IMG/VR virus record: IMGVR_UViG_3300035670_000137
Location: 1 to 64,000 of that record
Source of the DNA: a virus
Reading direction: 5' to 3' (one strand)
DNA length: 64,000 bases
Each line of letters begins with the position of its first letter. Position 1 is the first letter of the stretch. Below the pieces are notes generated by a model. That model made no database searches. It saw only the letters and a list, made by a program, of their open reading frames with translations, and was not told the origin of the DNA. The position numbers and the translations under genes were made by a program. This document shows, piece by piece, positions 6,401 to 28,407 of the stretch.

Positions 6401-9400
6401 TTTATCTACTACTACCCAACTTAGAGTACGATCAGAGGTCCAGTTGGCTGGAATTGTTACATAGGTAGCATTAACCCTGATTGGAGTTTCATTACCGTTT
6501 GTAAACTCATAGTAGTCTAACCCAAATAACGGAGATATTTGGACCCACTTAAACATAACTGTAGAGCTTGAAGTACTAGTCTCCTGAAAATCTGTATCTA
6601 TAGTACCTAAGAATACTGTAGGTACTGGTGCCGAATAGAAGCTAGCACTATTAGATACTGAAGTCTTAGAGTCGTCTGAATGTGTTAATATATTACCATA
6701 ATTTCTTACGGATTCCTGATTAATTGTAGGTATATCTAAAGAGTATGTTACAAAATTATTACCTGCATTAGTTACTGTAAATACACCGTTATAGTTATAT
6801 GGTATAAACTCTCTAACTATAATTTTTGTACCTATAGGGTAGGGTGTATAAACATATGGATTAAAATATATTGTTGCTGTTTTTAGTATATTATCGTATA
6901 CTACACTAGTTGTATTACTAGATATCCCGCTATAGTTGCCACTAGAGTCAATAGCTTTAATGTAATAAGTATCTGTACTTAGATAAGTTGGTGGAGTTAC
7001 TTTGCAGAAAGCCTCGGCACCTCGATATATATACCCACTATCTTCTCCCCAGTTAGTATCACTAGTACGTACTTCGTATCCCCATATATCTATTTCTGTG
7101 CTAGGATTCCATGATACTAACACGCTTGTATCACTCACTGAAGTGTTTATTCCAGATATTTGAGGAGGTGCTAGAGTTTTTCCATATACTATTGCGGTTG
7201 CAGTTGCTGGTATTAGTGTTAACCTACCTATAGCATTAAGTGCCCACACCTTTACTTCATATGTGCCTGGTACTACATCATTAAGATCAGCTTGTGGAGT
7301 ATTAATAAATATTTCTTCTGACCAATTGCCTACATCTCGTTTATACATTAATTTGTATCTATTTGCAAACTGTACTGGCTCCCAAGCCGCAGATAGTTTT
7401 ACAACTACGTTGCCTTTAGTAGCATATAGACTTTCTACTAATGTTAGAGATTGTGGGGTGGCTGGATTGGCTGATAAATTTGAATAGTCTCTTTGTTCTA
7501 ATTGTGTGCCGTTTTCAATATAACTATATTTTGTTGGTTCGTGTTTAACTGCAGTAATAGAGAAAATACTATTATCTTCTTCAGTTACTGCTAGTACACG
7601 GAATTGCTGTATTTCGACAGTATCTGCATATGCTACCCATATACTGCCAACTTGTGGTAGTTCTGGAAGTGCAGTAGATAAAGTTAATATATTTTCAGAA
7701 TTAATACTAGATATAGTAGCTGACTGTATAGTGCCATCTGCTTTAAAAGCATTGAAAGTATAAGTTTCGCCTACATCCATCTCCATGGCTGAGTCTATTT
7801 TAATATGGGTAGTATCTATACTTTGTACAACTCTACCACCTAAACGAACTCCTGCTCTAGCTGGATCGGCAACTTTAATAATATTACCAGGACGAGCCGT
7901 TGCACCCTCTAGACCTGTCTTAAAGCTTACTACATCTGTCTCATATTTTTCAGTATATAGAATCCATTCACCGACTCGGTGGGCTTGCCCACGACTGGTG
8001 CAGCCTACTGCTATTACATCTGTCTCTATAATACCATACTGTTTAACGGCTTCATCGTCTTGCACATATTCTACCTTAGGACGACACATATCTTTCATGT
8101 CGTTCCAAGTTACTAATGCTACTGTATGCCTAGTTTTTTCACTAGATCCTGAGTATGTGAATACTCCATCAATTACGTTAGCCTGTGAGAATAGATGTGA
8201 AGCATCTGCCGGGGCATCTTGAATAGCTGTAATTGTACCTGCTGACCAGTATAACATGCCTCTAAAGATGGAGGCCATATCATTAAGTACTTTAAAAGCA
8301 TCCTCTCTAGATTGAATATACATATTACATGTAAATCTAGGCTCTATCAGCCCATCCCCTAATCCAGATATTACTGGCTCATCGCAGTACTGTCCTATAG
8401 TGTATAAAGCCCATTTATCAACCAGTGCGTCATCTATGTAGTTTCCTAATCCATATCTATCGTTGGTTATAAGATCATATAAACACCAAGCGGGGTTATT
8501 GGACCAAGCAATTTTAAATGTGCCATCCCATGGCCCAGTATACGTGCGTTTTAAAGGGTCATAATTTACAGGTACTTTAATCTTTAATAGTTTAACATCA
8601 TATGCACGATTAGGTATACTGTCAAACTGAGAGGAGTCTATACTAATACCGACAATAGCTGAGTTTGGATACCTGAATTTACCGTATGTTATCTCTGTTT
8701 CTAGATCTAACCAAGTTTGATTACCGAGACTGCCTTTAATACTCTCATTAGTATTACGGGAGACTCTAGTCATCCAAGTACCTGGCTGTCCAAAAGGAAC
8801 GAATACACTTCTTTGATAGCGACTGCTAGCCTTACCAGATATAGAAATCTTGTTATCGTATCCTAGTTTGTACATCATATAAGACGTACATATACCATTT
8901 CCCGATGTTAGTATACGTATAGCCCTATCTGCTACCGCACCTACAGTAGAATAAAACGTAAGGCTATGTACTTGATTGCTTGGTAGTTCGGGCATAACAA
9001 CACTAATTATACCGCCAAGTAAAGACTCTTGTGTACTATAATCTGCGGACAGTGTTCCTGTAGCTATATTTGTCCAAGCTCCACCATTAGTAGATTCTTG
9101 TATGGTATAAGTAATATCGTCATAAGTAATAATATTACCTAACAATTTAGAAAATATAGAATTACTATTATGCGAGAAATTAACAGAAATGTATAAACCA
9201 GTAGTGCTGAAAGTATTAGTAGTTATAGTTGTAGCATTAGTAGTATTTGTATAGCTTTGTGCATTTTCCCAAATTGTACGAATAGAAGCTGGATACCAGC
9301 CTGAATCTGCTCCCAGAGTAGTAATATGTCTAGCATGTACTTCTAACTCTACAGATGTACCATTAGTATCGCCGGTTGTTGTATCCTGTACGAATAGTTG

Positions 9401-20052: not shown

Positions 20053-20493
20053 TTAAAGAACTGGGTATTGAACCGTAATATTTACTTCACCTACACCGTA
20101 TGGCTCTAGGAGTCCCTCATCCGTAACTATGGAATTGATCAGAATTTCAGTAGTTTGAGCACCTGCGGTTTCAGTATCGTATACTAGAGTTCGATTCGTA
20201 TCGATAACCTTCTCTACATCTTCTAGAAGGTTTTCTAATTCTTGTGCGGGATTCTCTCCCTTTACGTACAACTTAAGGGATATACCAAGGAATCCCCATT
20301 TAAATCCGGCAGGAAGATACTCTCTAGTTTCTGAACCTGTGGACATGTAGATAGCTGGGAAATCTGATACTTCGTCCCAGAACTTCAATTTAGGGTATGC
20401 ATTACTAAATATATTAGTATTATACCCACCTGAACCATCTATTAACTTTAATTTCTCTGCCAATGCTTTGGCTATTGATGTTCTTACTGACAT
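20053..20493 (-). CDS. Tail terminator (T5 p142-like)
   Basis: SIVTDEGLLEPYGVGE motif; position. Confidence 0.8.
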   Translation of the reverse strand: MSVRTSIAKALAEKLKLIDGSGGYNTNIFSNAYPKLKFWDEVSDFPAIYMSTGSETREYLPAGFKWGFLGISLKLYVKGENPAQELENLLEDVEKVIDTNRTLVYDTETAGAQTTEILINSIVTDEGLLEPYGVGEVNITVQYPVL

Positions 20494-21200
20494 ACTCTCC
20501 ATCCTTTATGAGATTTTCTATGCCCATTTAGTACAGCACCTAAATTTGTATGTTGTAAGTTATGCTGCTTGGCAAATTCTTTTATATTATCAATATTTGT
20601 GAATACTTCTCCTGTTGGAGATATTAGATTAGGATTTATTTTTCCCAGTGCCTTTGAGGAAAATTTATGTCCTTTATTATGTATACCTTTAATACTTTTT
20701 AAGATATCATACTTATATGGATACACTTCCTCTAACCATTTATAGTTACTTAAACTGGCTATACTTCTAACTGTATACACAGATACAGCTGTAATGTCTG
20801 CAATATCAGATGCAGTCAAGTGCTGTTCATCTACTAAAAGATTAAATACTTTAAGGATTTGTTCGTTAGAATATTTGGAACATGGATTGTTAGTACCTCG
20901 TAAACCTAGGTGGCCCCGTCGTCCTCTTGACTCATCATATGTATTAAAACCATTTAATACACTATTAAATATATCTATAGCAATATTTTCATTCTCATCT
21001 AGTGTAGACTCAGTACACTCTAATAATATCTTTAGCTTAGGAATACCATACAGATTATATGCTTCCATTAACTTTTCTGAACTTGTATTATTTTTAAGGC
21101 TATATTTATGTTGACCGAATCTATATTCTATATTATTAGATTGTCCTATATAAACTTTATCTGTACCTTCAAATTCTAAACAATATATACCTATTGTCAT
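20484..21200 (-). CDS. GIY-YIG homing endonuclease (start ATG 21200 after AGGAG)
   Basis: GIY...VYIGQS...RF..H; NUMOD-like C-terminus (SPTGEVF...HKGW). Confidence 0.85.
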   Translation of the reverse strand: MTIGIYCLEFEGTDKVYIGQSNNIEYRFGQHKYSLKNNTSSEKLMEAYNLYGIPKLKILLECTESTLDENENIAIDIFNSVLNGFNTYDESRGRRGHLGLRGTNNPCSKYSNEQILKVFNLLVDEQHLTASDIADITAVSVYTVRSIASLSNYKWLEEVYPYKYDILKSIKGIHNKGHKFSSKALGKINPNLISPTGEVFTNIDNIKEFAKQHNLQHTNLGAVLNGHRKSHKGWRVCQ

Positions 21201-21277
21201 GGTTGTTCTCCTGAAAGAAATTGAGGGCTGTTGTTCAGGCAACAGTTAACGGCTCATGACTTCCGAACCCTCTTAAA

Positions 21278-26563: not shown

Positions 26564-26983
26564 TTAGTAGAAGGAGCTAAATAGTCCTTTAGGCTTTTCG
26601 CCTTCTAATCCCAGGGCTTTAGCTTTTTGCTTCTCTATCCACCGACACTGCTTTTCAGAACTATTTAATGGAGGAGCTTTGCCGAATATACCATGTAATT
26701 TTTGATGGTGCTTAAGGCAGAGCGTAAATACCCATTCATATATTTCCTGTCTATGGGACTCTATAAACTCATCTCTAACTGCTAGAATTCCTGCATCTGT
26801 GCTAATATCATAACCTTTTTCTTTGGCCCATTTTTCGAGTAATATTGTAAGAGATGTTGTATGATGTAACTCTAGTTCGGTTTTTGCTGAACAGATGAAG
26901 CATTCATCCTTCTTTTCGTACGCCGATTTAGCACGATCACGAACATGTTTTACAGCTACTCTTTTATTTGTATTAGCGCTCAT
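26564..26983 (-). CDS. Putative nicking HNH endonuclease (T5-like, next to portal)
   Basis: CFIC...LELHH...TLC..HH..LH; same position as in T5. Confidence 0.7.
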   Translation of the reverse strand: MSANTNKRVAVKHVRDRAKSAYEKKDECFICSAKTELELHHTTSLTILLEKWAKEKGYDISTDAGILAVRDEFIESHRQEIYEWVFTLCLKHHQKLHGIFGKAPPLNSSEKQCRWIEKQKAKALGLEGEKPKGLFSSFY

Positions 26984-27678
26984 GCAAGTATCCAACCTTT
27001 ATAGCTAGGTCTTTGTCTACGTAATACTTTTCCTAAATATGCTTTACAAATTTTATGCTCTGATGCAAATTTAGTTATATTTTCTACTTTATACACTGTA
27101 CCTTCTGGAGACATTATTTCTGGATACTCTATGCCTTTTCCCTTTGCGGAGCTTCGTATACTTTGTCTTAATATATTAGCCTTCTTTATATCGGCATAAA
27201 TTTCTGGATACTCTATTTGTAACCATTTATGTGTACGTCCAGTAGCTATATCTCTTACAGTAGATATAGAAATATTTGTTATTTCAGCTATATATTTATG
27301 AGTATGTGGATCTGTCAATAAAAGAAAACATTCTAATAACTGATCTTTTGTATACTTTAAATTACTAGACTCTAGTCCGGCTAGTCCCCCTACTGACTCG
27401 GTACCTCCAGTGGTTGAGTTAAGACCATTTATATAGGAATTATATACTTCAATAGCATTTATTTCCAAATCATTTAAATTATCTTCATTAGTTTCTTCTA
27501 TTAAGATACTAAAAGTAGGTGGCCCGAAAATATTATAAGCTTTTTGTAGCTTTTCAGATCCCTGTTGTAATCTTAGAGCATATAAATGTTCTTTGAATCT
27601 CTTTTCTATATGCTTCGATTGTCCAATATATACTTTATCGGTACCCTCAAACTGAAGGCAGTATATACCTATAGTCAC
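26980..27678 (-). CDS. GIY-YIG homing endonuclease (likely GTG start 27678), paralog of 20484-21200
   Basis: TIGIYCLxFEGTDKVYIGQS shared with paralog. Confidence 0.85.
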   Translation of the reverse strand: MTIGIYCLQFEGTDKVYIGQSKHIEKRFKEHLYALRLQQGSEKLQKAYNIFGPPTFSILIEETNEDNLNDLEINAIEVYNSYINGLNSTTGGTESVGGLAGLESSNLKYTKDQLLECFLLLTDPHTHKYIAEITNISISTVRDIATGRTHKWLQIEYPEIYADIKKANILRQSIRSSAKGKGIEYPEIMSPEGTVYKVENITKFASEHKICKAYLGKVLRRQRPSYKGWILA

Positions 27679-27841
27679 TATATTCTCCATAAAGAATTCT
27701 AGGGGCCTCTGTTATGGCAGAGGTTAACGGTTAATTAGGCCGATCCCCATTTATTTTTTCCACAAAATCTCATTTTCCATTATTGTACACCTCTAGCAAG
27801 TAAAAGTCAAGAACAAAATTTTTTATGCTACATAGAAACAA

Positions 27842-27869
27842 AAATACCCGCATAAAAGCGGGTATTTTT
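27842..27869. terminator. Bidirectional intrinsic terminator
   Basis: AAATACCCGC-ataaaa-GCGGGTATTT flanked by A/T runs. Confidence 0.7.
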
Positions 27870-27870
27870 A

Positions 27871-28407
27871 TTATATACGGTTAAACACTCTATCCCAGAA
27901 GCCACGATTGATTAACTCTGTAACCTTAGCATTACTTTCATTAAGTAAGCTTTTTGTTACCCATAACTCTTTCTCTAACTCCTGTAAAGCGGTACCATCC
28001 TTGACCCTAGCAAGCTCATCTTTTAACTTATCACGTTCAGTAGTTACATCGGACCACTGCATATAGTGCTCGAAGGTGCTAAGATCCCAAGCTGCATAAG
28101 GTACCCTATCTACTAGTTCTGTCTCTTCAATACTAAGTACATTAGGTCTAGTACTGTTAAGTATATCGTTAGACCAGTGCAGGTTAATATAGTAAGATTC
28201 TAGTATGTCTATATGGTGCTTATGACATAGACGTATAATACTAAACTGTGGCAATCCGCAGCTGTTATACGTAGCTTGTATGGCTTTTGTGTGTCGTCCG
28301 GACTCCATCTCACGTATGTGAGTCTTCCATCGGTTCTCAATGTTTTCCGATTTGCCAATGTAGTATGACCCGTCACTAAAGTCAAATCGGTATATTCCGC
28401 TAATCAT
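27871..28407 (-). CDS. GIY-YIG domain protein
   Basis: GIY...YYIGKS..IENRW..H; coiled-coil tail. Confidence 0.7.
   Translation of the reverse strand: MISGIYRFDFSDGSYYIGKSENIENRWKTHIREMESGRHTKAIQATYNSCGLPQFSIIRLCHKHHIDILESYYINLHWSNDILNSTRPNVLSIEETELVDRVPYAAWDLSTFEHYMQWSDVTTERDKLKDELARVKDGTALQELEKELWVTKSLLNESNAKVTELINRGFWDRVFNRI

Follow-up and report, generated by a model that had tools for sequence, protein, structure and literature searches.

The question raised by this locus is whether the short stretch of DNA in front of a GIY-YIG gene, lodged between two phage tail genes, encodes an RNA that holds down the translation of that gene, and whether such an RNA belongs to the gene or to the site. 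Homing endonucleases are DNA-cutting enzymes that can be harmful to whatever carries them. To our knowledge, phage restraint of these enzymes outside the T4 model is largely unknown. The original prediction placed a covarying three-way-junction leader upstream of the gene and described a loop that is complementary to its ribosome-binding site.

The locus and the anatomy of leader copy 1

The source is IMG/VR virus record IMGVR_UViG_3300035670_000137 (76.8 kb, completeness estimate 73%), which derives from an uncultured, T5-like phage. The window is the whole stretch of DNA that was analysed, positions 1 to 64,000 of this record. Copy 1 of the leader and the gene downstream of it form a cassette among T5-type tail genes, with a p143-like tail completion protein gene upstream and the tail-tube terminator gene downstream. 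The nuclease matches Pfam PF01541 (E = 1.5e-5), has a NUMOD-like C-terminus and is assigned to homing endonucleases in PHROG. The features at copy 1 are as follows.

20494 to 21277, minus strand: inserted cassette (leader and endonuclease gene), flanked by the p143-like tail gene and the gene of the tail-tube terminator
20484 to 21200, minus strand: GIY-YIG homing endonuclease gene downstream of leader copy 1, 238 aa, ATG at 21200
21268 to 21272, minus strand: 5' strand of P1, GAGGG; P1 is 100% paired in 16 members, with 2 of 4 pairs changed on both sides (GC/CG/AU/GU)
21250 to 21265, minus strand: P2 hairpin, CGG [AAGUCAUGAG] CCG; stem 100% paired, covariation in 2 of 3 pairs
21246 to 21249, minus strand: J2/3 junction strand, UUAA; UUAA/UUCA/UUUA/UUUG in the class-1 alignment
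21228 to 21245, minus strand: P3 hairpin, CUGUUG [CCUGAA] CAACAG; 3-4 of 5 pairs changed on both sides
21223 to 21227, minus strand: 3' strand of P1, CCCUC, from the covariation alignment
21206 to 21219, minus strand: P4, the SD hairpin, UUCU [UUCAGG] AGAA; all 4 pairs changed on both sides

When the minus strand was read again, the sequence and geometry of copy 1 agreed with the original prediction to the base. The strand runs GAGGG (21272-21268), TT, CGG (21265-21263), [AAGTCATGAG], CCG (21252-21250) and TTAA into P3, which consists of CTGTTG (21245-21240), the loop CCTGAA (21239-21234) and CAACAG (21233-21228). It continues with CCCTC (21227-21223), AAT and TTCT, followed by the hexamer TTCAGG (21215-21210), AGAA, CAACC and ATG (21200-21198). 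The three-way junction of P1, P2 and P3 thus spans 21272-21223 (minus strand), the linker between P1 and P4 is 3 nt, and the whole leader is about 70 nt long. The loop of P3 is complementary to the loop of P4 at 6 of 6 positions, and the P2 loop contains a 6-nt palindrome, UCAUGA (21259-21254). The Shine-Dalgarno (SD) sequence GGAG lies at 21211-21208 and is divided between the P4 loop, which contains GG, and the 3' strand of P4, which contains AG. In the predicted fold the SD of the endonuclease gene is held in RNA helix, GG by pairing with P3 and AG by the P4 stem, and the P4 loop ends 9 nt before the ATG.

The TAA stop of the p143-like gene is at 21280-21278 (minus strand), and P1 begins 5 nt later. 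No credible promoter was found upstream of copy 1, and no promoter-like site on the minus strand within 21272-21201; copy 1 is therefore probably transcribed by read-through from the tail operon. An in-frame TTG at 21242 (minus strand), inside P3, would lengthen the ORF by 14 codons, and it is probably unused, as it lacks an SD and relatives do not conserve it. Among the DNA contigs of this phage the cassette is identical, and no empty-site variant was seen.

When the leader is folded alone, the three-way junction together with P4 is the minimum-free-energy structure for copy 1 and for most members of the family. When 96 nt including the flanks are folded, another structure has the minimum free energy (z = 0.0). 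The thermodynamic stability is unremarkable, with z from 0.0 to -0.2, and the support for the leader therefore rests on covariation.

The second copy and tests against chance

The second copy precedes a GIY-YIG paralogue of the copy-1 gene (44% identity), which starts with GTG at 27678.

27682 to 27748, minus strand: leader copy 2; P1 GGGG/CCCC; P2 CGG[CCUAAUUAA]CCG; P3 CCUCUG[CCAUAA]CAGAGG; P4 AUUCU[UUAUGG]AGAAU
27782 to 27868, minus strand: terminator-like hairpin (27868-27840), then a promoter-like TTGACT-17-TACAAT (27810-27782), upstream of copy 2; weak Rfam terminator-type matches

Read through to the start codon (27748-27676), copy 2 is GGGG AT CGG[CCTAATTAA]CCG TTAA CCTCTG[CCATAA]CAGAGG CCCC TAGA ATTCT[TTATGG]AGAAT ATA GTG. 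Compensatory changes had originally been described for the outer stem, the third stem and the pseudoknot; they were found in every helix, with the geometry kept. P1, P3, the kissing loop and its target all differ between the two copies, complementarity being preserved in both, and the P2-loop palindrome is UCAUGA in copy 1 and UAAUUA in copy 2. The promoter-like site of copy 2 lies upstream of the entire leader. Copy 1 has no counterpart of this site or of the terminator-like hairpin.

A sequence-free descriptor was applied to both strands of the 64 kb. It requires a hairpin with a 6-7 nt loop, the exact complement of this loop downstream as the loop of a second hairpin, and a start codon within 4-16 nt. 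It returned precisely copies 1 and 2, compared with 0.2 sites in shuffles. A covariance model built from ten cores, with copy 1 left out, recovered copy 1 with 24 bits (E = 2e-5), and other held-out members were recovered as well; copy 2 scores 58 bits. From the descriptor, the held-out detection and the covariation described below, chance is rejected as the origin of the leader, and the observation is confirmed as real.

When 16 distinct cores are aligned to the model, pairing is seen in 94% of the cells of the junction helices, compared with 76% in shuffles, and 8 of 12 pairs are changed on both sides; these statistics favour the structure because the alignment was fitted to the covariance model, and counts of cells overstate the number of independent events because the class-1 members (those of the window type) fall into few related subgroups. 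The junction covariation score is 0.47 compared with 0.15 in shuffles (reached in 0 of 500), and it collapses when the registers are slid. The original description of the three-way junction as covarying is thus borne out, and the helices do covary in further members from viral and metagenome loci.

For the kissing pairs and P4 we used a MAFFT alignment made without fitting to any structure. Sub-alignments were used, since MAFFT mis-registered the 3' tail when the whole leader was aligned. The six kissing pairs are 96% paired, 4 of 6 are changed on both sides, and one of them varies as AU, CG, UA and GC. The covariation score is 0.67 compared with 0.22 (0 of 500 shuffles), and slid registers reach at most 0.13. 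The terminal pairs, C-G and A-U, are invariant, so that covariation proves only the four central pairs. An automatic parser reading the DNA by coordinates found the kiss to be 6/6 Watson-Crick in 18 of 18 class-1 leaders with 10 distinct loops. Its target is a hexamer with its 3' end 8-12 nt upstream of the start codon, and the bases next to it are AG, GAAAG or GGG. The mean run of complementarity of a class-1 loop is 6.0 nt with its own tail and 2.9 nt with the tails of other members, and none of 100,000 permutations reached the observed sum.

The pairing of the loop with the ribosome-binding site, as first proposed, therefore holds. Its drawing as a pseudoknot with a single strand does not, because the partner UUCAGG is itself the loop of hairpin P4, and the interaction is a loop-loop kiss. 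The complementary hexamer is enclosed by a P4 stem of 3 bp or more in 17 of 17 class-1 leaders and in 21 of 23 leaders of the second structural class (class 2), compared with 5-7% of control registers, and the complementarity coincides precisely with both loops, P3 and P4. An H-type pseudoknot was rejected on the same ground, the downstream partner being the loop of a covarying hairpin and not a single strand.

Relatives and structural classes

The copy-1 nuclease has 139 homologues in a large protein collection. From viral and metagenome contigs 160 loci were retrieved with an alignment query (a single-protein query found none), and the closest protein relatives, P0002-P0005 with 52-76% identity, lie outside this set. 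A kissing-type leader is present in 22 of 107 distinct upstream regions of the nuclease homologues, and none was found in shuffles. The leader is thus optional for the nuclease, 85 of the 107 regions being without it. Fifteen of the 22 leaders belong to class 1 and seven to class 2.

Class 1 comprises 18 leaders in total with 10 different loop pairs. Every P2 loop in this class carries a 6-nt palindrome in a 2(3)+6+1 layout, which is UAAUUA or, in copy 1 and L089, UCAUGA. These are only two independent palindrome types, each with a chance of about 5-7% in shuffles, and two scans that were independent of the P2 loop gave no new type. A protein-independent scan for the class-1 P2 loop found L195, at the same tail-gene site, where a class-1 leader precedes an EndoVII/HNH-type gene (phrog_1035, E = 7e-16).

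The class-2 layout is P1, GAA, P2 with (A/C)GGG[UUUAGCGGC]CCUG, P3, CUA and P1', and the loop logic is the same as in class 1; the P2 loop is not palindromic. There are 23 leaders with 21 distinct loops, and the loops match their own SD region only (0 of 100,000 permutations). About 23 nucleotides of the junction and P2 are near-invariant across very different phages and nuclease families. According to a scan with the P2 core, class-2 leaders precede HNH, EndoVII-like, other GIY-YIG and large "MAKTGPKP" genes. Together with L195, this range of genes makes the leader a module common to unrelated nuclease families. Over both classes the linker between P1 and P4 is 0-4 nt long; in three class-1 members it is a single nucleotide, and four class-2 members have none (0 nt). 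In three pattern scans, chance matches accounted for 60 of 68, about half of 71, and 15 of 17 matches. Across the genomes of 185,579 bacterial and archaeal species, the exact class-2 core turned up only once, as a chance match that is not a leader. We conclude that the leader belongs to a widespread RNA family.

Several smaller observations concern individual loci. The class-2 core GAA-(A/C)GGGUUUAGCGGCCCUG...CUA is near-invariant in L238, L250, L252, L257, L258, L266, L276, L280, L282, L287, L299, L300, L302 and L303. In two of them, L303 and L287, the leader follows a complete Rfam match to a group I intron at a distance of about 100-190 nt.

L303: 8212 to 8504, group I intron (Rfam match); 8610 to 8666, class-2 leader
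L287: 2094 to 2367, group I intron (Rfam match); 2553 to 2603, class-2 leader

A subgroup of class 1 marked by GCGG (L024, L034, L036, L038, L040, L061 and L068) has a TTGACA/TATAAT promoter about 30-70 nt upstream of P1; between the two, immediately ahead of P1, there is an additional small hairpin with a run of U or A. At L178, positions 858-902, there is a class-1-like core of 33 bits, which the search pattern had pre-selected. After it comes a terminator-like hairpin but no ORF, and the core is a decayed copy or else owes its match partly to chance.

Novelty and possible roles outside initiation

The fold was not recognised in the original prediction. In Rfam 15 neither copy has a match at the gathering threshold or at E up to 10, no leader match was obtained for 15 class-2 loci, and no description of the leader RNA was found in literature searches. 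A megablast search of the copy-1 region against GenBank phages gave no match, and tblastn with the copy-1 nuclease gave distant N-terminal matches only. Sequestering a ribosome-binding site is an established principle; what is new with respect to Rfam 15 and the literature searched is this family of RNAs with its kissing design.

Small junction RNAs of phages with conserved cores and pseudoknots are often ribozymes. Copy 1 sits within an operon transcript. We considered a role away from initiation, either as an element of processing or stability (an RNase site, or a ribozyme whose self-cleavage would release the nuclease mRNA from the operon transcript) or as a transcription attenuator. We hold such a role to be very improbable, since in every leader the SD is overlapped by one of the kissing partners, at a fixed distance of 8-12 nt from the start codon, no ribozyme family matches even at E = 10, and no U-tract follows a strong hairpin. 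Identity with a known ribozyme or riboswitch was rejected for want of an Rfam match, and identity with a terminator was rejected as well.

Cassette membership and site occupancy

Eighty relatives were retrieved via the tail-terminator protein. In about 73 of them the site is empty, and the stop of the p143-like gene overlaps the ATG of the terminator gene (ATGA). No class-1 leader was found within 2.5 kb on either side of these empty sites, and hence the leader travels with the nuclease cassette. The leader had originally been proposed to be mobile together with the endonuclease, and in this respect the occupancy data agree; a restriction to GIY-YIG genes is contradicted by the EndoVII/HNH-type gene of L195. 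The occupied sites are varied. A nuclease with a class-1 leader is found in this window and in L012, L089, L143 and L195, a nuclease with a class-2 leader in L152, a leaderless nuclease in L310 (HNH type, ATGA-coupled), L006 and L010, and a nuclease with its own promoter in L046 and L075. The leader also occurs in different genomic contexts. In L312, L313 and L314, whose tail terminator proteins are 83-84% identical, there is no p143-like gene, and a head-tail connector-like gene abuts the terminator gene.

The element might conceivably act as DNA and not as RNA, being a recognition site of the endonuclease, a recombination hot spot or a protein operator. The P2 loops are indeed DNA palindromes (TAATTA and TCATGA), and I-TevI binds an operator at its own promoter, as cited in PMC3014915. 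We regard this explanation as extremely improbable, for it fits the data poorly: the helices stay paired by way of G-U pairs and double changes, which holds for just one of the strands, and the element serves unrelated nuclease families. The homing target site in particular was rejected, as the leader is absent from empty sites and so cannot be the target.

Proposed mechanism

We propose that the leader is a self-contained and portable translational lock on homing-endonuclease genes, a reading to which we give slightly better than an even chance. The leader would be a cis-acting 5' RNA of about 70 nt that forms part of the homing-endonuclease cassette. In it every base of the 6-nt P3 loop would find its partner in the 6-nt P4 loop, and this kiss and the P4 stem would jointly bury the ribosome-binding site, so that translation of the nuclease would be kept low. 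From this anatomy we infer a role as a translational silencer, as originally suggested, with the kiss formed within one molecule and with repression being constitutive. The lock would matter most for copy 1, which is without a promoter of its own and would be read through from a heavily transcribed tail-gene operon. Since the leader contains the lock as well as its target, it needs neither the flanking nor the coding sequence, and such independence would explain its presence before unrelated nuclease families and at different genomic sites.

If this is true, the leader is a portable RNA device that arrives with the nuclease gene and works in any genomic context. It would be common to at least three to four unrelated nuclease families, and possibly to intron-associated ones too. 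Translational restraint would then be a built-in part of the mobile elements and not an adaptation of each host site. The RNA design is compact, with a three-way junction that would aim a loop at the loop of the SD hairpin, and the 6-nt "key and lock", which varies freely, could be put to use as an orthogonal regulator of translation.

A plain lock explains neither the palindromic P2 loop of class 1 nor the near-invariant P2 and junction of class 2. Moreover, the linker between P1 and P4 is so short (0-4 nt) that a within-molecule stack of P3, kiss and P4 with a closed P1 of 4-5 bp looks strained, on a rough geometry that takes the stack as quasi-coaxial. The short linkers and the P2 palindrome fit pairing between molecules or a two-state switch.

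In the first of these, the leaders would self-associate through the P2 palindrome and the P3 and P4 loops, hand in hand as in phi29 pRNA or HIV-1 DIS, and nuclease mRNAs would lock one another's ribosome sites only when the mRNA is abundant, which would limit nuclease synthesis by concentration. The monomer would be a rod with the complementary loops of P3 and P4 at its ends and P2 as a side arm with a self-complementary loop. Such a shape agrees with the linkers, which place P4 at the foot of P1, and with a complementarity that matches both loops exactly, from which both hairpins should be closed in the kiss. It also agrees with the fact that all class-1 P2 loops are palindromic, copy 1 having exchanged UAAUUA for UCAUGA, which is again a palindrome, and with the difference of copies 1 and 2 in all three loops, by which they would not cross-pair. 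The steric argument is rough, however, and a bent within-molecule kiss with P3 folded back along P1 is possible. The palindrome argument is weakened by the small number of independent types, by the failure of the scans independent of the P2 loop to add another, and by the non-palindromic P2 loop of class 2; furthermore, copy 1 is inside a long polycistronic mRNA. We consider pairing between molecules unlikely. If it does occur, the leader would limit the dosage of selfish nuclease genes by RNA alone, and each copy would have an orthogonal set of loops.

In the second, which we judge rather improbable, the closed P1 junction and the kiss would be alternative states flipped by a signal. Candidates for the signal are a ribosome terminating upstream (for copy 1), temperature, Mg2+, and a ligand or protein at P2 or the junction. 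The steric tension between a closed P1 and a within-molecule kiss would be accounted for. In addition, P1 of copy 1 lies 5 nt past the upstream stop, close enough for a terminating ribosome to reach it, the kiss is rich in AU pairs (4 of 6 in each of the two copies in the window), and the roughly 23 near-invariant nucleotides of class 2 are typical of a binding pocket. On the other hand, no conserved alternative pairing was found and there is no similarity to Rfam riboswitches. Many copies follow a promoter and not an ORF, so that coupling to upstream translation cannot be general, and class 1 has few invariant junction bases.

Comparison with known systems

The nearest parallel to the proposed lock is found in T-even-type phages. 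According to PMC3014915, RNA structures that sequester the ribosome-binding site hold down the translation of I-TevI, I-TevII, I-TevIII, mobE and segB; hairpins of this kind in T-even-type homing endonuclease genes, including those of T4 segB and Aeh1 mobE, are likewise described in PMC3014915 and PMC2988022. The leader is similar in being a cis-acting mRNA structure at the initiation region of an endonuclease gene, in which the SD is predicted to be masked. T-even-type hairpins limit translation from read-through transcripts, and the same role is proposed for the leader. The two differ in architecture, since the T-even-type structure is a single hairpin with upstream sequence whereas the leader has four covarying helices and a loop-loop kiss. 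A late promoter is often inside the T-even-type structure, as with I-TevI, so that late transcripts escape, whereas no promoter is inside the leader. Unlike the T-even-type hairpins, the leader also combines lock and target in a portable unit, as an RNA family conserved across nuclease families. Many homologues of this GIY-YIG family use the T-even-type design, with an inverted repeat over the TATAAT box and the SD. At L011, L020, L023, L025, L094, L105 and L115 a long I-TevI-like inverted repeat spans the TATAAT box and covers the SD.

Among riboswitches, preQ1-III and SAM-II/V sequester the SD by a pseudoknot or by loop docking, and the purine riboswitch combines a three-way junction with kissing loops. 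Like translational riboswitches, the leader is a small structured 5' element whose junction acts as a scaffold for a hairpin loop pairing with the SD or beside it. In contrast to them, class 1 is without an evident ligand pocket, the genes are selfish nuclease genes and not metabolic ones, and the partner of the loop is the loop of another hairpin.

For self-association, the HIV-1 DIS is a 9-nt loop with a 6-nt palindrome, and the class-1 P2 loop shares its 2+6+1 palindrome layout. The phi29 pRNA is a three-way junction with interlocking loops (PMC4201828), and the leader, a candidate for self-association from its sequence, likewise has a three-way junction and complementary loops. Unlike both, the leader has its loops at a ribosome-binding site and shows no link to packaging or genome dimerisation.

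Other GIY-YIG genes of the phage

No further leader copies were found in the source record or in three related records, and no class-2 leader in the 64-kb window. The end of the copy-2 GIY-YIG gene is overlapped by a 143-aa ORF (26564-26995, minus strand) with CxxC and HHxxxH-like motifs. It has no Pfam match and is possibly a small HNH-type protein, judging by these motifs. A third GIY-YIG ORF of 178 aa lies at 27871-28407 (minus strand) and is without a leader. It looks translationally coupled, since it lacks a leader and its ATG overlaps the stop of the terminase large subunit (ATGA). A fourth GIY-YIG paralogue with 40% identity is found outside the window, at 70762-71442 of the record (plus strand; L003). 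It has no leader and is preceded by its own promoter, TTGACA-17-TATAAT.
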